DNA from: a virus
Taxonomy: Duplodnaviria > Heunggongvirae > Uroviricota > Caudoviricetes
Length of the DNA stretch: 53,032 nucleotides
Reading direction: 5' to 3' (one strand)
IMG/VR virus record: IMGVR_UViG_2541047822_000003
Below are positions 1,532 to 51,794 of this stretch, piece after piece. The position numbers were made by a program, and so were the translations under genes. The notes beneath the pieces are model-generated. The model was not told where the DNA came from, ran no database searches, and was given only the letters and a program-made list of their open reading frames with translations. Within the stretch, counting starts at the first letter, position 1. Each line of letters begins with the position of its first letter.

Positions 1532-1753
1532 TTAATTTGAATACAATGCAATTCTCGAGGACTGAAGTTTCTCGCAATTAAAATTTATCAGTTTTACTTT
1601 CTGCTCTCTGGAAACGCCTGCTTCTTTTTTACCTGAGAGCATTTTTTCGCATTCTGATTTCGTTAGTTTAGATTTTGAATATCTTGTCCAGTTAGTAGGA
1701 GTGCCACCTTCCTTTTCAATAGTGGCGGTAATTTTATACATGAACACCTCCAT
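1532..1753 (-). CDS. ydaC: Small Rac protein YdaC-like (function unknown)
   Basis: ORF 1532-1813 in a different frame from ralR; position between xisR and ralR matches Rac order. Start codon uncertain (chosen at MEVFMYK). Confidence 0.5.
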   Translation of the reverse strand: MEVFMYKITATIEKEGGTPTNWTRYSKSKLTKSECEKMLSGKKEAGVSREQKVKLINFNCEKLQSSRIALYSN

Positions 1754-10518: not shown

Positions 10519-10574
10519 CGAGATTAAAGTGCATTAGTTCAGATGCAAATTGACATTTTGTGGCACAGGGTAGA

Positions 10575-10602
10575 GCTAGCGTGGTTGTCCGCTTTGTGCC
10601 AA
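10575..10602 (+). repeat. 28-bp palindrome-like junction element, copy A (ttgtccgcttt-GTGCCA-agagcagacgc)
   Basis: 11-6-11 architecture with GTGCCA core, shared with copies at 14258-14285 and 15424-15451; lies 250 bp upstream of the BCCT gene. Confidence 0.55.
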
Positions 10603-10852
10603 GAGCAGACGCTGGTAATTCGTGCCTAATATACTTCACTTAACTTATATCCCAGCTTTGATACAGATCATACAAATTAAATGCCCCAGTAATTGGCAGG
10701 CTGAGTAACTTAAAACTCCTTAGAATATAGGATGATTTGTATCGGCACTCATTCCACCATGCATTCCGATTAACCCCGCATAGCCAGTTGAACTTTGCTA
10801 CTCTGTGAGAGGTAGTACCTTCTATCCAGTGCGGATTTAATTAATGGAATAA

Positions 10853-12856
10853 ATGATTATGAGTGAAAATGATACAACCCCAAAGAAGTCTACAAGCCAG
10901 ATTAACAAAGCGGTATTCTTTACATCTGCTTTGCTAATTTTCCTTCTTGTCGCCTTTGCCGCCGTATTCCCGGATGTCGCCGACAAAAATTTTAAACTAC
11001 TTCAGCAACAAATCTTCACGAATGCCAGCTGGTTCTACATACTTGCTGTGGCCCTGATTTTACTGAGCGTCACGTTCCTTGGACTCTCACGTTACGGTGA
11101 TATAAAGCTGGGCCCAGACCATGCGCAGCCTGATTTCAGCTACCACTCCTGGTTCGCGATGCTTTTTTCGGCAGGGATGGGGATCGGCCTGATGTTCTTT
11201 GGCGTTGCCGAACCTGTGATGCATTATCTTTCGCCACCTGTCGGCACTCCAGAGACCGTTGCGGCAGCGAAGGAAGCCATGCGCCTGACGTTCTTCCACT
11301 GGGGTCTGCACGCATGGGCAATTTATGCCATCGTGGCGCTGATTCTGGCCTTTTTCAGTTACCGTCACGGTCTGCCTTTAACGCTGCGTTCTGCGCTCTA
11401 TCCCATTATCGGCGATCGCATTTACGGGCCTATAGGCCACGCGGTTGATATCTTCGCCGTGATAGGCACTGTCTTTGGCGTTGCAACATCGCTGGGTTAC
11501 GGTGTATTGCAGGTGAATGCCGGTTTGAACCATCTTTTCGGCGTGCCCATCAATGAAACGGTACAGGTCATTTTGATCGTGGTCATCACGGGGTTAGCGA
11601 CGATTTCGGTGGTGTCCGGCCTGGACAAGGGAATACGCATCCTGTCTGAGCTTAATCTGGGCCTGGCGGTGTTGCTCCTGGCGCTGGTCTTGTGCCTGGG
11701 TCCCACTGTGCTTCTGCTGAAGTCATTTGTGGAAAATACGGGTGGTTATCTGTCGGAACTGGTGAGTAAAACGTTCAACCTTTACGCGTATGAACCCAAG
11801 TCGAGCAACTGGCTGGGGGGCTGGACATTATTATACTGGGGATGGTGGCTTTCATGGTCGCCGTTTGTAGGTATGTTCATTGCACGCGTTTCCCGCGGCA
11901 GGACAATTCGTGAGTTCGTGACTGGCGTGTTGTTTGTTCCCGCCGGCTTTACGCTCATGTGGATGACGGTGTTTGGAAACAGCGCCATCTATCTCATCAT
12001 GAACCAGGGCGCCACTGACCTCGCCAATACCGTTCAGCAGGATGTTGCGCTTGCCCTGTTTAATTTCCTGGAGCATTTCCCGTTCTCTTCCGTGCTGTCA
12101 TTCATTGCAATGGCGATGGTCATCGTCTTCTTTGTAACGTCTGCTGATTCGGGGGCAATGGTTGTGGATACTCTGGCATCAGGTGGGGTGGCAAACACGC
12201 CCGTCTGGCAGCGAATTTTCTGGGCATCGCTCATGGGCGTTGTTGCTATTGCCCTGCTGATCGCAGGGGGGCTGAGTGCGTTGCAAACCGTAACGATAGC
12301 GAGTGCATTGCCCTTCTCAGTTATCTTATTAATATCCATATACGGACTGTTAAAAGCCCTGCGTCGGGATTTGACCAAGCGTGAAAGCCTTAGCATGGCG
12401 ACTATTGCTCCTACGGCTGCACGTAACCCAATTCCCTGGCAGAGAAGGTTACGCAATATCGCGTATTTGCCGAAGCGCTCTCTTGTGAAACGTTTTATGG
12501 ACGACATTATCCAACCCGCCATGACGCTGGTTCAGGAGGAACTTAACAAGCAGGGAACGATAAGCCACATCAGTGACGCCGCCGAGGATCGTATTCGCCT
12601 TGAAGTCGATTTGGGCAACGAGCTGAATTATATATATGAAGTGAGGCTTCGCGGGTATAACTCACCGACCTTCGCGCTCGCTGCGCTGGATAATGATGAG
12701 CAGCAGAGTGAACAACATCGATATTATCGCGCTGAAGTCTATCTCAAAGAGGGCGGCCAAAATTATGATGTAATGGGCTGGAATCAGGAACAGCTGATTA
12801 ATGACATACTGGACCAGTACGAAAAACACCTGCACTTCCTGCATCTGGTTCGTTAA
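10853..12856 (+). CDS. BCCT-family transporter, BetT-like (choline/betaine-type osmoprotectant uptake)
   Basis: 667-aa polytopic membrane protein with the BCCT signature GWTLLYWGWWLSWSPFVGMFIARVSRGRTIREF and a BetT-like C-terminus (DILDQYEKHLHFLHL). Alternative start ATG 10859. Confidence 0.8.
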   Translation: MIMSENDTTPKKSTSQINKAVFFTSALLIFLLVAFAAVFPDVADKNFKLLQQQIFTNASWFYILAVALILLSVTFLGLSRYGDIKLGPDHAQPDFSYHSWFAMLFSAGMGIGLMFFGVAEPVMHYLSPPVGTPETVAAAKEAMRLTFFHWGLHAWAIYAIVALILAFFSYRHGLPLTLRSALYPIIGDRIYGPIGHAVDIFAVIGTVFGVATSLGYGVLQVNAGLNHLFGVPINETVQVILIVVITGLATISVVSGLDKGIRILSELNLGLAVLLLALVLCLGPTVLLLKSFVENTGGYLSELVSKTFNLYAYEPKSSNWLGGWTLLYWGWWLSWSPFVGMFIARVSRGRTIREFVTGVLFVPAGFTLMWMTVFGNSAIYLIMNQGATDLANTVQQDVALALFNFLEHFPFSSVLSFIAMAMVIVFFVTSADSGAMVVDTLASGGVANTPVWQRIFWASLMGVVAIALLIAGGLSALQTVTIASALPFSVILLISIYGLLKALRRDLTKRESLSMATIAPTAARNPIPWQRRLRNIAYLPKRSLVKRFMDDIIQPAMTLVQEELNKQGTISHISDAAEDRIRLEVDLGNELNYIYEVRLRGYNSPTFALAALDNDEQQSEQHRYYRAEVYLKEGGQNYDVMGWNQEQLINDILDQYEKHLHFLHLVR

Positions 12857-12863
12857 CAGCAAC

Positions 12864-12890
12864 ATGCCGCCACAGAGGCGGCATTTATTT
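12864..12890 (+). terminator. Rho-independent terminator-like hairpin after the BCCT gene
   Basis: ATGCCGCC-acaga-GGCGGCAT followed by TTATTT, 8 nt after the BCCT stop. Confidence 0.6.
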
Positions 12891-12919
12891 ATCCCGGCTG
12901 CAATATGAGGGAATGCAGA

Positions 12920-14197
12920 ATGATTTCACGCTGGAAATGGATGCTGAAGCAGACATTTAAAAAACTATGGTTCAGGGCAACGTTATTCGCAATTGTCGCA
13001 ATAATAACGGCCCTTTTATCAATTCTTTTTAAATCAATGATACCTGAGTCGGTTTCCGTGAAGGTTGGTGCGGAAGCAGTCGATAACATTCTGAACATAC
13101 TGGCATCGAGTATGCTGGCAGTGACCACATTTTCGCTGAGCATCATGGTCACAGCCTACGGTTCAGCCACTACTAATGTGACTCCCAGAGCTACTCGTTT
13201 AGTTGTTGAAGACGTCACCACACAAAATGTACTGGCCACCTTCATCGGTTCTTTTCTCTTCAGTCTGGTAGGGATTATTGCCCTCAATATGGGAGCTTAT
13301 GGAGAAAGGGGGAGAGTCATTTTATTCATTGTAACACTGGTTGTCATTGCCTTAATCCTCATCACATTGCTTCGCTGGATACAGCATTTGACCTCTCTGG
13401 GGAGGGTTGGTGAGACAACGGCAAAAGTAGAACAGGCGGCCATCGAAACATTTATTGCGAGAGCAAGAAATCCCTGTCTCGGCGGATATCCATGGCTTGA
13501 GAACAATGAACAGCCGAAAGGAACGGTTGCAGTTTATCCGAAAAAGATTGGCTATGTTGAATATGTTGATATGGTGAAACTCAGCAAGCTGCTGACCAAT
13601 GATCCCCGTCATGTATACCTCGTGGCGCAGCCGGGCAGTTTCATACATCCGTCCACGCCAGTTTTGTACCTGAGTCAGGGCCAGGAGTCATCAATCAGCA
13701 CCGATTTACTTGAGACGATTATTGTCTCGGATGTACGTTCATTTGCTCAGGACCCCCGATTTTGTCTTAGCGTCATGGCCGAAATAGCCTGCCGAGCCCT
13801 TTCCCCCGCAGTGAACGATCCTGGAACCGCCATTGATGTCATTGGCAGAGGTGTACGTATACTTTCCGCTTACGCGCAGAATAAATCTGATGAAATAGAA
13901 GTGAAATATCCTTCTGTACATGTTGCACCACTTCAGAATAACGATCTACTTGAAGACTTTTTCTCACCTGTTGCGCGCGATGGTGCCAGTATGAGGGAAA
14001 TTCAGATAAGGGTACTTAAAGGACTGTCGATGCTGAGTAAGGGTTGGCCTGGAATTTTTGCTGAAGCCGCACAAACCCTAGCATTTGAAACATTAGAGCA
14101 TGCTACTCGTGCTGACCATATAGATTCTGATAGATATCTAATAAAATCAATTTATTATAATTTATTTAGTGGCGAAGATTCTAATAAAAAACCATAG
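12920..14197 (+). CDS. Membrane protein, DUF2254-like (4 N-terminal TM helices plus soluble C-terminal domain)
   Basis: ORF 12905-14197; start preferred at ATG 12920 (GAGGGA 7 nt upstream). Four hydrophobic helices then a soluble domain; family call is from recall, not a search. Confidence 0.65.
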   Translation: MISRWKWMLKQTFKKLWFRATLFAIVAIITALLSILFKSMIPESVSVKVGAEAVDNILNILASSMLAVTTFSLSIMVTAYGSATTNVTPRATRLVVEDVTTQNVLATFIGSFLFSLVGIIALNMGAYGERGRVILFIVTLVVIALILITLLRWIQHLTSLGRVGETTAKVEQAAIETFIARARNPCLGGYPWLENNEQPKGTVAVYPKKIGYVEYVDMVKLSKLLTNDPRHVYLVAQPGSFIHPSTPVLYLSQGQESSISTDLLETIIVSDVRSFAQDPRFCLSVMAEIACRALSPAVNDPGTAIDVIGRGVRILSAYAQNKSDEIEVKYPSVHVAPLQNNDLLEDFFSPVARDGASMREIQIRVLKGLSMLSKGWPGIFAEAAQTLAFETLEHATRADHIDSDRYLIKSIYYNLFSGEDSNKKP

Positions 14198-14257
14198 TTG
14201 CGGAGCAAGCGATACGGTTGTTGGCAAGTCAAGGGCAAAGCATTCGCGTGAGAGTGG

Positions 14258-14285
14258 GCGTCTGCTTTGTGCCATGAGCGGACAT
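14258..14285 (+). repeat. 28-bp palindrome-like junction element, copy B (gcgtctgcttt-GTGCCA-tgagcggacat)
   Basis: Same 11-6-11/GTGCCA architecture; 61 bp downstream of the DUF2254 stop. Confidence 0.55.
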
Positions 14286-14489
14286 GGGCCTCCTCAGCAG
14301 TTCTGCAGACAGCTCTCGTGTAGTAAGAAACTGGAAAGCAGGGTTTCGATATCTGGTCATGAGTCTAAGATAGTCAGGACTGCGGCAGAATCGGATGTTA
14401 CTAAGCTTGGATCAACAGTATCTTCGATGTAAGAAAATTACCTTGAAAATATTTGGGGCCAAGGTTACGCTAATAAAAAATTGTCAAGT

Positions 14490-14522
14490 AAAACGCAATT
14501 ATTATATTAATAGTTGCGTTTT
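14490..14522. terminator. AT-rich hairpin between convergent genes (AAAACGCAA-15 nt-TTGCGTTTT)
   Basis: 9-bp inverted repeat read directly between the DUF2254 gene and the 3' end of the 225-aa gene; weak stem with long loop. Confidence 0.3.
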
Positions 14523-14556
14523 AATAATATCTTGCAGATGTAATAATATTGGGTGT

Positions 14557-15234
14557 TTATGTCAAACCTGCTCTACGTCCTCTTGACATAATTTCCTTCT
14601 GATAAGGAATTGTTCCATCTTTAATAAGCCTTGAGAGCTCGTTCAATCCACCATCAATTCTCTGAGAGACGTTAAAGAGAATATTTCTATTTGCTAGCAC
14701 AGGGATTAAGTATTCATACTCCTCATAGTCATCACAAAAATCCATAGCACACATACCCCACTCAGCATTTATAAATGGATCTATAACCTCATAAATAAAT
14801 TGAGATGTCAGCATTGAGACATCTTTATTAGGAGCAGCAAAATGTTGAATAGAGTTCCTCAATTTCCCAAAATCATTGTATAACTTAAGATTATTAATCT
14901 TCTTTCCAGTTGCAGCCCAAACCTTCTCAGGCAACTCTGAATAAGTAATTGTTTGCCCTTTTTCTAATAAGCTTTCAAAATCAAGAAGCCCTGTAGTTTT
15001 ATTTACGCAATCAGCTGTTGATTTTGGTAATGACTCAAAAATTAAAAGAGGGTGTTCCTGAGCAAGACGAGCTTTGAGAAAAATCTCACAAGCATGGGCT
15101 GCCTGTAAGACGCCCAATTGTGACCACATAGAGTTACTCATATCATAAAAATGAGCAAGGTAGTTGGCATGAGCAAGTGAACCTGCTCCCAAAACAATCA
15201 TATGCTCATGAACTTTTTTTAAATTAACATCCAT
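14557..15234 (-). CDS. Hypothetical protein with a HEPN-like Rx4H motif (putative RNase / abortive-infection-type protein)
   Basis: 225-aa ORF in AT-rich DNA; GAGGAG RBS 7 nt upstream; predicted alpha-helical with motif GKLRNSIQHF (R-N-x3-H) typical of HEPN catalytic sites. Motif-level inference only. Confidence 0.6.
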   Translation of the reverse strand: MDVNLKKVHEHMIVLGAGSLAHANYLAHFYDMSNSMWSQLGVLQAAHACEIFLKARLAQEHPLLIFESLPKSTADCVNKTTGLLDFESLLEKGQTITYSELPEKVWAATGKKINNLKLYNDFGKLRNSIQHFAAPNKDVSMLTSQFIYEVIDPFINAEWGMCAMDFCDDYEEYEYLIPVLANRNILFNVSQRIDGGLNELSRLIKDGTIPYQKEIMSRGRRAGLT

Positions 15235-15360
15235 TTAACACTCCTCAAAAAACATTTGTTTACGTTATCAAAAAAAGATGGGTATTGCCCACATTTTAAG
15301 ACGATTATATTTAAATTTGTTATGTGGTGTTACTTAAGTTTCGGATGAATAATATGTCTG

Positions 15361-15395
15361 CTCTTCGCTCTTCGCTCTTCGCTCTTCGCTCTTCG
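15361..15395 (+). repeat. Tandem heptanucleotide repeat (CTCTTCG)x5 plus a degenerate sixth unit
   Basis: ctcttcgctcttcgctcttcgctcttcgctcttcgctcaccg read directly; flanked by GTCTGCT (15356-15362) and GCGGAC (15402-15407), resembling arms of the junction palindrome. Confidence 0.85.
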
Positions 15396-15423
15396 CTCAC
15401 CGCGGACCTTCAGCTTCGTTAAC

Positions 15424-15451
15424 ATGTCCGCTCCGTGCCAGGAGCGGACAT
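15424..15451 (+). repeat. Perfect 28-bp palindrome, copy H (ATGTCCGCTCC-GTGCCA-GGAGCGGACAT)
   Basis: 11-bp perfect inverted arms around a 6-bp GTGCCA core; no flanking T-tract, so not a canonical intrinsic terminator; lies between the two minus-strand cargo genes. Confidence 0.8.
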
Positions 15452-15582
15452 TAATGAGTTAAGTTCTGAAAGTAGCATTAAATACGCACATGCTTTTCCT
15501 AATAACTCGATTGTCATTTATATCGTTAAACAGTTCCGGAGACAACTCTGACTTACAGGAATATCGCTAAGCCTCTGCCTCC

Positions 15583-16464
15583 CTAAGCAATATCCTGATT
15601 GCTGAGTTGAGGCATTAATCGCTCAAATAATTCATCACTTTCATAGGGGATGTTATTAATATGCCGAGAATAAATTAACCCTCTAGGACAAAGCTTGGAC
15701 AAAGAACTTTCACATAAAACACCTATACATTTTTTGTTTTCCCCTGCCATAAAGTCTTCTAAATTCCTCAAGATAAAATTTCGTGACAACTCACGATGTT
15801 CGCTTATTGCCATTCTCGCATCTTCAGAATTAATGAGAGACAGGTTAGGAAGCAAATCAGTAACATTAACGGCCACCATGCCTAGATTTTTAAGTGATGA
15901 GCTATCCTTTATCCTGCGCACGATCTGCTGGTTTGCAACTTTTATGTTTTTAGATAGTTTTTTTAACGACTTAACTCGTTTGCATTCTACAAAAAGAATT
16001 TTGCCGTCAGAGAGTTTCACTTCGATATCACAAATGCTTTTAAGAGAAATTTTATATCCTGCACGTAGAAATCTTGCAGCCATTGACAACTCAAACAGAA
16101 AGTCCCTTGCAGGATCGTTCTCAGAAGTAGCACGAAATTCTTGACCAGTGATAACCTTCTTTATTTGATCGAGATACTCCTTGATATCAAGCCATTTAAG
16201 ATCATTGTAAACTCTTATAATTTCATTAGCTTCCACGTGAGAATTCATCATCTCCTTCATAAAGGCAACTAAATTTTCATCGGGTGTATCTTTGAAAATT
16301 TTTTCACCATTTGATAGTGCTTTCAATTTTTGAAGGTTTTTGTGGTATACCCCATATCTTGTTACTGCAAACCTAAAACCCAAACTATCGAACCAAGTAC
16401 AAACCTCTTCAAATTTAGTTAACAAACCTGAAAACTCATGCTCGTATATTTCCTTGCCTTCCAT
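15583..16464 (-). CDS. Hypothetical protein with a PD-(D/E)xK-like nuclease core motif
   Basis: ORF runs to 16542 (TTG); start preferred at ATG 16464 (MEGKEIYEHEF, AAAGAGAAG upstream). Motif pattern E(FLFELSMAARFL)...D(ICDIEVKL)-SDG-KILFVECK fits a beta-hairpin D...ExK nuclease core. AT-rich. Inference. Confidence 0.6.
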   Translation of the reverse strand: MEGKEIYEHEFSGLLTKFEEVCTWFDSLGFRFAVTRYGVYHKNLQKLKALSNGEKIFKDTPDENLVAFMKEMMNSHVEANEIIRVYNDLKWLDIKEYLDQIKKVITGQEFRATSENDPARDFLFELSMAARFLRAGYKISLKSICDIEVKLSDGKILFVECKRVKSLKKLSKNIKVANQQIVRRIKDSSSLKNLGMVAVNVTDLLPNLSLINSEDARMAISEHRELSRNFILRNLEDFMAGENKKCIGVLCESSLSKLCPRGLIYSRHINNIPYESDELFERLMPQLSNQDIA

Positions 16465-16704
16465 ATTCTTCTCTTTAAATAAACCCAGATTCGTATTAGT
16501 GCTTGTCAAATTCATAGGGGCTGTGCCCCTTAAAATCATCAAGTGGGAGCTTGACCTGTAAAGATTGTGAAGCTATTCGCATCTCGATTAAATGCTCTAT
16601 ATAGTTGACCAGACCAATTTATACCAAACGGCAGAATAAAAGAAGGAATCCTCTCTGCACTTAACTAGTCATTCCTTGACTACTGTGATTAAGATCACTT
16701 CCAA

Positions 16705-16730
16705 AGTCCGCTTATCGCTCAAAGCGGACT
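16705..16730 (+). repeat. Palindrome related to the junction element (AGTCCGCTT-atcgctca-AAGCGGACT)
   Basis: 9-bp perfect arms sharing GTCCGCT/AGCGGAC with copies A, B and H but with a different 8-bp centre; upstream of the PD-(D/E)xK-like gene. Confidence 0.5.
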
Positions 16731-16908
16731 AGAAGGTTAGCTTGCGTCGGACTTGGCGTATTTAAAGAAGTGCTGGTGGTGACTGGTTGTTGTGTTCCAT
16801 TTCTACAGAACAAAATCACAGAAACTATACCCAATAGTTATATTGAATCAATGATGAGACAGCCTCATATTTATCAGAACTGGTGTACGTCCAATACAGG
16901 AGGTTGTC

Positions 16909-16998
16909 GTGCTGGTTCTCAAATGTGCGCTAGCTATTGCGGCTGTAATGGCAATTTATTGTCTTGCTGTTGTTCTTATGGAGCGGCTTTCTGATTGA
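16909..16998 (+). CDS. Candidate small hydrophobic peptide (29 aa, type I toxin-like)
   Basis: GTG start 5 nt after a perfect AGGAGG (16898-16903); product MLVLKCALAIAAVMAIYCLAVVLMERLSD is one predicted TM helix with a charged tail. Speculative; overlaps a 74-aa Cys-rich frame that I rejected. Confidence 0.3.
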   Translation: MLVLKCALAIAAVMAIYCLAVVLMERLSD

Positions 16999-17145
16999 TT
17001 ACATACTGGCTAGAAAAAAGGTGTTACCTTGGTTTATCTTTGTCCGGCAAGGTGCGCTCATTAATCTTAAGTAAATTTATTGCTCAAGTATTCAGATTAC
17101 TTCTTATGGTTGAAGTCTCCTGTCAATGTAGAACCAATATATTTA

Positions 17146-17182
17146 CAAAAATGAGACCCGTCGGGGATAGCCCTGCCGGGTC
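17146..17182 (-). terminator. Rho-independent terminator-like hairpin downstream of the 17213-17551 gene
   Basis: GACCCG...CGGGTC stem followed by a T-run on the minus strand (plus-strand caaaaatga). Confidence 0.45.
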
Positions 17183-17212
17183 TGACTGTTAAAGCATTTT
17201 TAATATGATCAT

Positions 17213-17551
17213 CTATTTTTTGGTGCTATAGACTTTTTCGCCCGAGAAGTCTGGAGCGACCCAAAAGTTAATATTAAACTGAGCATCATCGCTTAGTTCA
17301 ACACGGTGCCAGTATTGTGGTGGGCTTGTTGCAAAAGCGCCAGCATTAATGACTACTTTTATCTCCGGTTCAGTAGCATTCTCATCAGTAAAACCATAAT
17401 ATGTTACAGTGCCTTCCATTACGCACAACTGCCCAAAAACACCTGCTGCTGTATTATGATGTGTTAATAACGCTGAAGGTACGTTCTCTTTTGTGAAGAA
17501 CGGAGTTGAGCGTTTGATTACCCAATCTTTAGGAATTCTCTTGTGTGTCAT
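17213..17551 (-). CDS. Small conserved protein, possibly cupin/DUF1971-like (function unknown)
   Basis: ORF 17213-17575; start at ATG 17551 (MTHKRIPKDW) with strong GGAGG RBS; family assignment is tentative. Confidence 0.6.
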   Translation of the reverse strand: MTHKRIPKDWVIKRSTPFFTKENVPSALLTHHNTAAGVFGQLCVMEGTVTYYGFTDENATEPEIKVVINAGAFATSPPQYWHRVELSDDAQFNINFWVAPDFSGEKVYSTKK

Positions 17552-17876
17552 AACCACCTCCTCAAAAACATGCATTATAAATGCGTGTTTTTGAGGGTTA
17601 TGTCAAGCTGTTATGAAACACATAATTGATATGTTGATTAGAGGAGAAGATATAATAAATATGGTTGTTTTTCGTATAACTATTTGTTTTACTTTTAGTT
17701 TATGCATTCTGTGTGTTAGGAATAAGTTATTAAAGTTTAATCAAAAAATCTCGATGTAGTCCACATAGATTATTGTTACTGAACCTTACTGTGTGTATTA
17801 GTTGTGTTCTGAAATTTCAGCTTAATTATTTATGATGTATTTTTTAACGATAAATATTTTCCCAGGATACCTTTAC

Positions 17877-20246: not shown

Positions 20247-20837
20247 GGGCTGGTTTATTGTATGCCAAATGATTATTAAAAAGGTTGTGTTAATAACAAA
20301 ATCCGAAATAATATGCCTGCATATTTTTATCTTGCTTATATTCTGCATATTGTGCATAGCAGGCTCATCCCTGCAATCAAAACTGTATGATGAGTATTTT
20401 TTGTTTTCCTTTTTTCCAGTCATCTGATGATGACCTGCTTCTTTTTAATCCGGATCGACATCAGTTTTTTAAGATAATTCCTGCGAGTTATATGCATAAA
20501 TACCACAAACTCCGCATTTTATGTGGTTGGGAGTTGCCGGGTGCGCAGTGAGTTTGCTAAGAAAACTCCTGCATGGTGAATCCCCCTGTGCGGTGGGGTG
20601 ATACCATTAACCTTTTCTGTCGCCGACAGGTATCACGAACATTTTGTTCACCGGGAGGCACCCGGCACCATGCACTTCAATAGATTCTCTCCACATTATG
20701 GATATTCTTTCAGAATATCCCACGCAGACTTTGTGTAAATGTTAACAAATGTGCGTTTTATTTGATCTGATTCGCTGTTTGAGCGTCCAAAACAACGGTA
20801 TATATAATCCTTTACTATATGACATATGTGAGGAAAA

Positions 20838-51219: not shown

Positions 51220-51794
51220 TGGCATTCAGAATGAGTGAACAACCACGGACCATAACAATTTATAATCTGCTGGCCGGAACTAATGAATTTATTGGTGAAG
51301 GTGATGCATATATTCCGCCTCATACAGGTCTGCCAGCAAACAGTACCGATATTGCACCGCCAGATATTCCGGCTGGCTTCGTGGCTGTTTTCAACAGTGA
51401 TGAGTCATCGTGGCATCTCGTTGAAGATCATCGGGGTAAAACGGTTTATGACGTGGCTTCCGGCAACGCGTTATTTATTTCTGAACTCGGTCCGTTACCG
51501 GAAAATGTTACTTGGTTATCGCCGGAAGGGGAGTTTCAGAAGTGGAACGGCACAGCCTGGGTGAAGGATACGGAAGCAGAAAAACTGTTCCGGATCCGGG
51601 AGGCGGAAGAAACAAAAAACAACCTGATGCAGGTAGCCAGTGAGCATATTGCGCCGCTTCAGGATGCTGCAGATCTGGAAATTGCAACGGAGGAAGAAAT
51701 CTCGTTGCTGGAAGCATGGAAAAAGTATCGGGTATTGCTGAACCGTGTTGATACGTCAACTGCACAGGATATTGAATGGCCAGCACTGCCGTAG
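51219..51794 (+). CDS. tfaR: Tail fiber assembly protein
   Basis: 191 aa; start overlaps the stfR stop (TAATG); recognised as Tfa family. Confidence 0.85.

Follow-up and report, generated by a model that had tools for sequence, protein, structure and literature searches.

Does a reading frame of only 29 codons in a prophage of Escherichia coli encode a protein and, if so, is this protein the toxin of a type I toxin-antitoxin (TA) system? The question is raised by a stretch of 53,032 nucleotides, the IMG/VR virus record IMGVR_UViG_2541047822_000003 (this whole stretch is called the window in the following). An initial annotation of its sequence had pointed out a short hydrophobic peptide frame behind a perfect Shine-Dalgarno (SD) sequence and had likened it to the small membrane toxins of the Hok/Ldr/TisB/Ibs class. 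Comparison of this small open reading frame (ORF) with its homologues indicates that it is a real protein-coding mini-gene, forming a predicted compact unit of ~155 bp. It is conserved, its peptide frame is under purifying selection and it holds a constant position. We consider it most probable (roughly 0.72) that the unit is a conserved gene for a small inner-membrane protein, residing in the hok-adjacent part of the nin regions of lambdoid prophages.

Coding evidence for the small ORF

Direct reading of the sequence bears out the arrangement of AGGAGG, a spacer of five nucleotides and a GTG codon opening a frame of 29 codons (Table 1). The 53-kb window has three occurrences of the pattern AGGAGG-N5-RTG versus 0.49 expected, and 2 of 100 shuffled sequences reach this number. 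The remaining two sites are the start of a DUF1971 gene in the RefSeq annotation and the GTG with which a 320-aa ORF begins, and since they mark two further real starts, the motif acts as a start signal in this genome. The peptide has a grand average of hydropathy (GRAVY) of 1.81, and its best 19-residue window, residues 6-24, reaches a mean Kyte-Doolittle value of 2.70. A lysine occupies position 5, and the C-terminal tail ERLSD is short and acidic. This profile is consistent with one transmembrane (TM) helix (residues ~6-24) preceding the tail, so that the single predicted helix with a short charged tail, as originally described, is borne out by hydropathy.

A set of 11 copies picked by DNA similarity alone was aligned together with the window (12 loci). 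In this alignment the small ORF is free of insertions and deletions, ends at the same stop and is preceded by an SD sequence in every copy; the lineage on Shigella virulence plasmids of the pINV type starts with ATG instead of GTG. Copies L010-L012, the three that diverge most, have lost all homology before the SD sequence and retain the SD sequence and ORF; in the window and in locus L005 all downstream homology is gone and the ORF is again retained. A larger set of 137 copies represents 31 ORF haplotypes. All of these copies have the start and 136 the stop, and start, stop, length and SD sequence are each preserved in 136-137. The ORF lies within a ~310-bp module (positions ~16702-17013), of which 88 unique haplotypes were compared. 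Their SD sequences read AGGAGG, GGGAGG, AGGAGA or AGGGGG (majority fraction 0.96), and the ORF is the best-conserved block of the module (0.96), with the far-upstream region at 0.81.

Substitutions single out the peptide frame. In the 31 haplotypes 37 ORF sites are variable, spread 13:6:18 over the three codon positions, and all amino-acid replacements are conservative (V/I, A/V/T, E/D/N, R/H, L/F). Within this main family the ratio of nonsynonymous to synonymous polymorphism (pN/pS) is 0.36 in the peptide frame, 0.73 in frame +1 and 0.86 in frame +2, which is that of the overlapping 74-aa frame. Events were counted by taking each minor allele once versus the consensus, with 30% synonymous events expected. 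The peptide frame gave 21 synonymous and 18 nonsynonymous events, a significant synonymous excess (P=0.0016); the counts were 8:26 plus 5 stop-creating events in frame +1 and 6:33 in frame +2, neither of which has an excess. The initial annotation had regarded the 74-aa frame as a likely artefact and had proposed to ask which of the two frames is preserved by substitutions. The pattern favours the peptide frame, and in many homologues the 74-aa frame is broken by upstream indels of 1 nt and 20 nt; its artefactual nature can be regarded as established.

The strongest coding evidence comes from a sister subfamily which was found by tblastn. Its 34-aa peptide MSDDISLVMEGALAVIAVVGVYCLVVFLMERLGN, listed in RefSeq as WP_001278460.1 (‘hypothetical protein’), is preceded by GGGAGG, 5 nt and an ATG start, and its gene occupies the same position directly upstream of hokD. 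As many as 5 copies occur in one genome, and the 674 genomes with this gene notably include O157:H7, O145, O111 and O55. Over the 29 shared codons, sister and main subfamily have 61% identity in DNA and 55% in protein, with differences distributed 11:4:17 by codon position. The ratio of nonsynonymous to synonymous substitution rates (dN/dS) between the subfamilies is 0.14 in the peptide frame, 0.50 in frame +1 and 1.82 in frame +2. The conserved core of the peptide reads A-L-A-x-x-A-V-x-x-x-Y-C-L-x-V-x-L-M-E/D-R/H-L, its conserved cysteine being Cys19. The small ORF thus combines frame-specific purifying selection with conserved translation signals, as expected of a protein-coding gene.

Putative signals for transcription were also found. 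A sigma-70 promoter, TTGAAT-17-CATATT, is predicted upstream of the ORF, with a transcript start near position 16878 and a leader of ~30 nt. It is kept in 11 of the 12 divergent loci, including L010 and L011 with their diverged spacers, and in the module haplotypes the -10 hexamer is kept in 87 of 88 (0.99), compared with 0.85 in the spacer, 0.90 in the leader and 0.81 in the region far upstream.

Position beside hok, prophage setting and distribution

The small ORF is remarkable for how widespread it is and for its fixed position beside hok. Of the 137 copies, about 125 of which have enough downstream sequence, 111 are followed by hokD on the same strand. The distance from the ORF stop to the hok ATG is 212 nt in 105 loci and 192-213 nt in 112. 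In locus L006 the hok leader of the Rfam database (RF01794) is found at positions 1534-1708 and the small ORF ends at about 1491. The ~43 nt between the ORF end and the hok transcript start contain the hok promoter TTGGCG-17-TAGAAT, which was found in 10 loci and not in the window. The ORF therefore adjoins the canonical hok/sok unit but stays outside it. Sequences like hokD were found at 10840 places in 4720 genomes, the two small-ORF subfamilies at ~3700 places; with hokD-like loci about three times commoner, the mini-gene is an optional companion and not an obligate part of hok.

In the window, sequence and Rfam searches gave no hok or sok remnant. Homology to the hok-linked loci ends shortly behind the ORF, inside a hok -35 box which reads CTGGCT (17006-17011) and elsewhere TTGGCG; beyond it, hok/sok is replaced. 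A DUF1971 cassette takes the place of hok in 12 of the 137 copies. On one IMG/VR contig (L135), in the stretch ~300-870 nt past the ORF start, hok is truncated at nucleotide 121 of 156 and the DUF1971 cassette follows directly. The cassette thus has at least two left junctions, one from the hok -35 box (window) and one within hok (L135), which suggests repeated recombination or deletion.

On pINV the ORF, the hok promoter and ~50 nt of leader are kept and hok is absent. This arrangement was seen on ~140 virulence plasmids of Shigella and enteroinvasive E. coli, where the ORF starts with ATG and the relic of the hok promoter reads TTGGCG-18-TAGAAT. Small ORF and hok relic are located 190-360 bp upstream of icsP, pointing towards it, within the intensively studied icsP-ospZ regulatory region; on plasmid NZ_JBLWKI010000002.1 (L010) they lie at ~1316-1500 and icsP starts at 1680. 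In the sister subfamily, a near-perfect palindrome CCGTATGGGAATTCCCATATCGG is located between the 34-aa stop and the hok promoter (L139, positions 1588-1625; plasmid pNJS001-2 and O157 prophages). It is without counterpart in the 29-aa subfamily, and the left arm of this palindrome is similar to the SD region (GGGAAT).

By its landmarks, YdaT-like and DUF977 genes followed by the ‘nin’ genes DUF1367, DUF1364 and DUF1133, the window is a lambdoid prophage of E. coli of the Rac/Qin-like kind. The small ORF is co-oriented with the early-right operon, and its right neighbour is the convergent DUF1971 gene with a terminator. Between the DUF977 gene and the small ORF lies a ~6.2-kb cargo island (10519-16700; genes in Table 1). 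Elsewhere the same slot carries DUF262, HEPN, NUDIX+HAD or acetyltransferase genes, BL21 has an empty slot, and the upstream genes differ from locus to locus. This variable content characterizes the slot as a cargo/defence hotspot, the right border of which is the palindrome at 16705-16730. In homologues the right arm of the palindrome does not vary, and no compensatory changes accompany the degeneration of the left arm. The hairpin at 17147-17190 with its T-run on the minus strand represents the intrinsic terminator of the convergent DUF1971 gene, and rightward transcripts of the small gene probably meet their first stop here as well.

These data also bear on what had been proposed for the surroundings. 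The location in prophage cargo territory is supported, with a predicted single-TM mini-protein beside a cargo island. Of the two junction palindromes and the convergent terminator that had been described around the ORF, the terminator stands by its hairpin and T-run; only one clear palindrome was found upstream, and the second was not recovered. At the left end of the window the RalA small RNA (sRNA) was detected, so that the prophage already bears one bona fide type I TA system.

Table 1. Features of the window discussed in the text, with positions counted from its first nucleotide.
Feature	Position	Strand	Remarks
RalA sRNA	1557-1735	+	225 bits; antitoxin of the Rac ralR/ralA type I system
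BCCT betaine/carnitine/choline transporter	10853-12856		Full-length; 662 bits
DUF2254 membrane protein	12905-14197
Leftward gene	14557-15234	-	Weak PADLOC PDC-S64/DUF3644 match
Leftward gene	15583-16542	-	No family
Palindrome	16705-16730		Perfect, 9-bp arms; left edge of ~310-bp module, border with variable cargo slot
Overlapping 74-aa frame	16770-16994		+2 frame relative to peptide frame; artefact
Back-to-back promoter-like site	16824-16851	-	TTGATT-16-TATAGT; points leftward to cargo slot, away from ORF
Predicted sigma-70 promoter of small gene	16843-16871	+	-35 TTGAAT 16843-16848, 17-nt spacer, -10 CATATT 16866-16871
Shine-Dalgarno sequence AGGAGG	16898-16903	+	5-nt spacer TTGTC, then GTG 16909
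Small ORF, 29 codons	16909-16998	+	GTG start, TGA stop 16996-16998; product MLVLKCALAIAAVMAIYCLAVVLMERLSD
Last 15 nt of homology to hok-linked loci	16999-17013	+	Ends inside hok -35 box
Hairpin with T-run	17147-17190	-	Arms 17147-17166 and 17171-17190, imperfect, 20 nt; minus-strand reading ...GGGTCTCATTTTTGT
DUF1971/TehB-N-like gene	17213-17575	-	Pfam DUF1971, 92 bits; start 17551 in the NCBI annotation pipeline (PGAP); occupies usual hokD place
sRNA STnc100	20541-20727	+	85 bits; downstream of nin genes
IS009 RNA-family match	51562-51760	+	221 bits; near tail-fibre end

The module with the small ORF was detected at 2240 places in 1950 of 5426 complete E. coli genomes and in at least 120 IMG/VR contigs, and 300 genomes match at least 80% of a 651-bp query of the window type. 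A tblastn search with the peptide gave 141 plasmids, of which 124 are of the Shigella pINV type, and the four phages Tritos, Evi, mEp460 and HannyBb. In a species-level genome scan the core was confined to Escherichia/Shigella and three contigs of metagenome-assembled genomes (MAGs) which are probably contaminated; the only other carriers seen were E. ruysiae, E. albertii and a few MAG contigs.

As suspected from the sequence, standard annotation misses the small ORF: 59 of 60 listed RefSeq records have no feature under the module match, and in BL21(DE3) the DUF977 coding sequence overlaps it. RefSeq PGAP leaves out the 29-aa subfamily, though some gene callers predict the peptide, and some older annotations name it ‘membrane protein’ or ‘hypothetical protein’ (REL606, UniRef entry). 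Identical or sister peptides are deposited as CDU35968.1 (‘putative membrane protein’), ACT39199.1 (REL606), UniRef A0A0M1UIT1 and WP_001278460.1 (the 34-aa sister); these entries consist of names only, with no function, family or literature attached. The copies in BL21(DE3) and REL606 are the MLVLKCTLAIVAVMAIYCLVIVLMDHLSD variant. To our knowledge, the small ORF has never been mentioned in the decades of studies on the hok locus. Neither of the two peptide sequences nor the accession WP_001278460.1 was found in the literature searched, and the small ORF is not mentioned in the paper on hokW-sokW, in the ribosome profiling (Ribo-seq) paper on small genes of enterohaemorrhagic E. coli (EHEC) with its supplements or in the preprint on the Pas sRNA.

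The small ORF represents an uncharacterised family of a familiar kind, that of small hydrophobic prophage peptides and candidate membrane toxins. If translated, the gene would rank among the most widespread small-protein genes of E. coli that lack an annotation, with subfamilies in 1950 and 674 of the 5426 complete genomes (counted separately, so that the sets may overlap) and with EHEC O157, BL21/REL606 and the Shigella virulence plasmid among its carriers. This makes it a concrete and cheap target for small-protein work, and the findings argue for a model of the 29-aa subfamily in annotation pipelines. The biological surprise is moderate, since small hydrophobic prophage ORFs without known function are common.

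Possible roles of the small protein

According to the reading preferred here, that of a conserved small inner-membrane protein gene, the unit would comprise weak sigma-70-like hexamers, a leader of ~30 nt with a strong SD sequence and the ORF of 29 codons. Rac/Qin-like lambdoid prophages of Escherichia/Shigella carry it in the early-right nin region, normally directly upstream of the hokD/hokW promoter. The product, a predicted single helix followed by a short acidic tail, would insert into the inner membrane and act there as a phage accessory peptide. Its own promoter would sustain a low level of synthesis, and after induction read-through of the early transcript would raise the output. The peptide may perturb or modulate the membrane alongside Hok, with lysis timing, exclusion or membrane potential as conceivable points of action, and it may work together with or parallel to Hok, which promotes phage release in Sp5 (PMC8621323). 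In the window, the DUF1971 cassette has replaced hok and the mini-gene survives alone. Since Hok homology and RNA-level control of the type I kind were both not detected, control is more likely to be transcriptional.

Several points weigh against this reading. It is built on sequence, and its specific guess at a function is a weak one, drawn from position and composition only. The predicted promoter of the small gene has only 8 of 12 consensus matches. BL21-type loci are without TTGAAT-17-CATATT, and the ORF start there overlaps the end of the DUF977 gene; both observations point to co-transcription with the early operon as a further way of expressing the ORF. Hok can do without the mini-gene, as the threefold excess of hokD-like places indicates. 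The pattern used to search IMG/VR constrained core codons, which biases the set of copies, and outside the constrained stretch the synonymous split is 14:15 with a weak excess (P=0.041). The main family has diverged little, so that an intact ORF by itself is weak evidence, and one of the off-frames likewise gained no stops. Furthermore, the supplements of the EHEC Ribo-seq small-gene paper do not contain the 34-aa sister peptide.

Foremost among the alternatives, although clearly the less probable reading, is a type I toxin of a new family. Such a peptide would depolarise the inner membrane, be silenced by an unrecognised antisense or divergent sRNA or by folding of its mRNA, and serve addiction or abortive infection like Hok. 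Its 29 residues (type I toxins being small hydrophobic peptides of less than 60 aa), the single predicted TM helix and the short charged tail would suit a toxin of the TisB, ZorO, DinQ or ShoB type. The prophage cargo site beside hok/sok and the presence of ralR/ralA in the same prophage point in the same direction. In addition, the conserved back-to-back promoter-like site could yield a divergent RNA, as in tisB/istR, zor/orz and shoB/ohsC, and the SD sequence of the window haplotype is predicted to be paired.

Membership in the Hok/Ldr/TisB/Ibs class, as suggested initially, was not supported by searches for families and RNA elements. Profile searches in Pfam, NCBIfam and PADLOC with the peptide gave zero families (Ldr, TisB, Ibs, ShoB and DinQ included), and PHROGs gave one chance-level match only (E = 0.84). 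The Pfam family HOK_GEF (PF01848) had no match to the peptide at E<=10, while seven Hok-family controls scored 32-86 bits. A Hok profile was built from eight proteins, namely seven Hok-family sequences validated against PF01848 and the HokD of L006. Against it the peptide scored 0.7 bits (unfiltered), a value equalled by 38-45% of shuffled sequences and by unrelated small TM peptides. A protein database search with HokD returned near-identical HokD sequences only. Rfam contained no antitoxin RNA family matching at or near the small ORF, permissive E-values giving chance matches only; RF01794 matched downstream of the ORF in both L006 and L012 (115-119 bits) and had no match in the window.

A divergent sRNA antitoxin was considered and rejected. 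The RNA predicted from the minus-strand site at 16851-16824 would extend from 16817 to ~16700. Its duplex energy with the ORF mRNA lies at the 50th percentile of shuffled sequences, and it has neither a conserved fold (alifold energy ~0) nor a U-rich terminator; an 8-nt repeat, GTGCTGGT, is deleted in several haplotypes. No conserved structure was found upstream on either strand. Antisense promoter-like sites inside the ORF are weak (7/12) and lost in the sister subfamily, so that no antisense promoter is common to both.

Masking of the SD sequence fared similarly. In the window haplotype, a pairing of this sequence with CUUUCUG of codons 27-29 is predicted (probability of being unpaired 0.014), which depends on the assumed 5' end; values as low occur in 1.7-3% of synonymous or codon-shuffled controls. 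Among 46 haplotypes the probability falls below 0.1 in 24%, and the median of 0.28 equals the null. In the sister subfamily masking is absent. For conserved folding of the mRNA, the alifold z-score is -1.1. Sequestration of the SD sequence by the 3' end of the ORF, significant only in the window haplotype and with one assumed 5' end, was therefore dismissed as a general control. As a separate observation, window-type haplotypes linked to DUF1971 have a CGG codon (CGC elsewhere) that lengthens the predicted helix 16984-16996 / 16896-16906, and their SD sequence is almost fully masked (0.004-0.03), unlike that of most hok-linked haplotypes. The difference may be fortuitous, or it may compensate for the lack of hok by damping translation. 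Finally, a strong and mostly accessible SD sequence behind a conserved promoter is hard to square with a potent unguarded toxin. The searches thus gave no RNA-level hallmarks of type I systems, and it is the make-up of the peptide that would fit; an action as a small membrane toxin is possible.

A speculative extension, somewhat more doubtful than the type I reading, is that the peptide is a protein-level partner of Hok which tunes pore formation as an enhancer, timer or immunity factor during induction or abortive infection, or else a new small membrane toxin under transcriptional control of the prophage and not under that of an antisense RNA. If the partnership with Hok applied, the prophage hok locus would be a three-component module of peptide, Hok and Sok.

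It is improbable that the ORF matters primarily as a cis-acting upstream element, its transcription or translation modulating the hok promoter or giving 5'-extended hok transcripts, with the peptide being secondary. The end of the ORF ~13 nt before the hok -35 box, the fixed stop-to-ATG spacing of 212 nt in 105 loci, the lack of a terminator between ORF and hok promoter and the same position of both subfamilies would suit such an element. However, conservation of the protein despite heavy synonymous divergence (dN/dS 0.14) is unexpected for a purely cis-acting upstream ORF. Moreover, the gene is intact without hok in the 12 window-type copies and on the ~140 pINV plasmids, where only the hok 5' relic is left, and most hokD-like loci are without the small ORF.

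Marginally less credible still is a non-functional chance ORF which hitch-hikes in a young and widely spread recombination module beside hok. The low divergence of the main family, with its 31 haplotypes and 37 variable sites, and the consistent omission of the 29-aa subfamily by PGAP would agree with this. Against it stand the frame-specific synonymous excess, the low dN/dS between the subfamilies, the switch between GTG and ATG starts, the conserved SD sequence, the conservation of the ORF above all other blocks of the module (0.96 vs 0.81) and its persistence after exchange of either flank. A Hok paralogue cut down to the TM half of a duplicated hok gene, in tandem with hok, had been considered from similarities of the termini seen by eye (MLxK-x-AL... 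and ...ERLSD vs ...R-E/D-x-L-C-E), but it can be dismissed for practical purposes, as the Pfam scan was negative, the hidden Markov model score did not exceed that of shuffled sequences and the Rfam hok-leader model has no match upstream of the small ORF.

Comparison with known systems

The closest known system by position is Hok/Sok, represented by hokD and by hokW-sokW, the latter an experimentally functional TA system aiding the release of phage Sp5 (PMC8621323). It is the immediate neighbour of the small ORF in most loci, on the same strand and in the same prophage region, and both products would be small single-TM peptides of the inner membrane, here as predicted from hydropathy. In contrast, there is no sequence relationship, the peptide has 29 aa compared with 50-52 aa of Hok and is without a periplasmic domain, and the small ORF lies outside the hok transcript and is without mok, sok, tac and fbi elements.

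The toxins of TisB/IstR-1, ZorO/OrzO, DinQ/AgrB and ShoB/OhsC are 26-29 aa long, with a single hydrophobic helix and a small number of charged residues at one end. The peptide resembles them in length and make-up, and the promoter-like site on the opposite strand upstream of the ORF recalls their divergent layout. It differs from them in that no family match was found, complementarity is at chance level and the divergent RNA has no conserved fold. Furthermore, the leader is predicted to be short (~30 nt) instead of long and structured, and masking of the SD sequence is unconserved.

Prophage morons and small effectors constitute the third comparison, with DicB of the Qin prophage as a small prophage-encoded effector (PMC6832061). 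The small gene differs from DicB, which is soluble and unrelated, by its much smaller size, and from morons in that it has no dedicated terminator of its own in hok-linked loci; the promoter of its own is conserved but weak, being predicted from an 8/12 match. Like these elements, it is compact, lies inside a prophage operon with a promoter-like signal of its own and forms a conserved, exchangeable unit. By analogy, it would plausibly be expressed in lysogens and act on membrane functions of the host.

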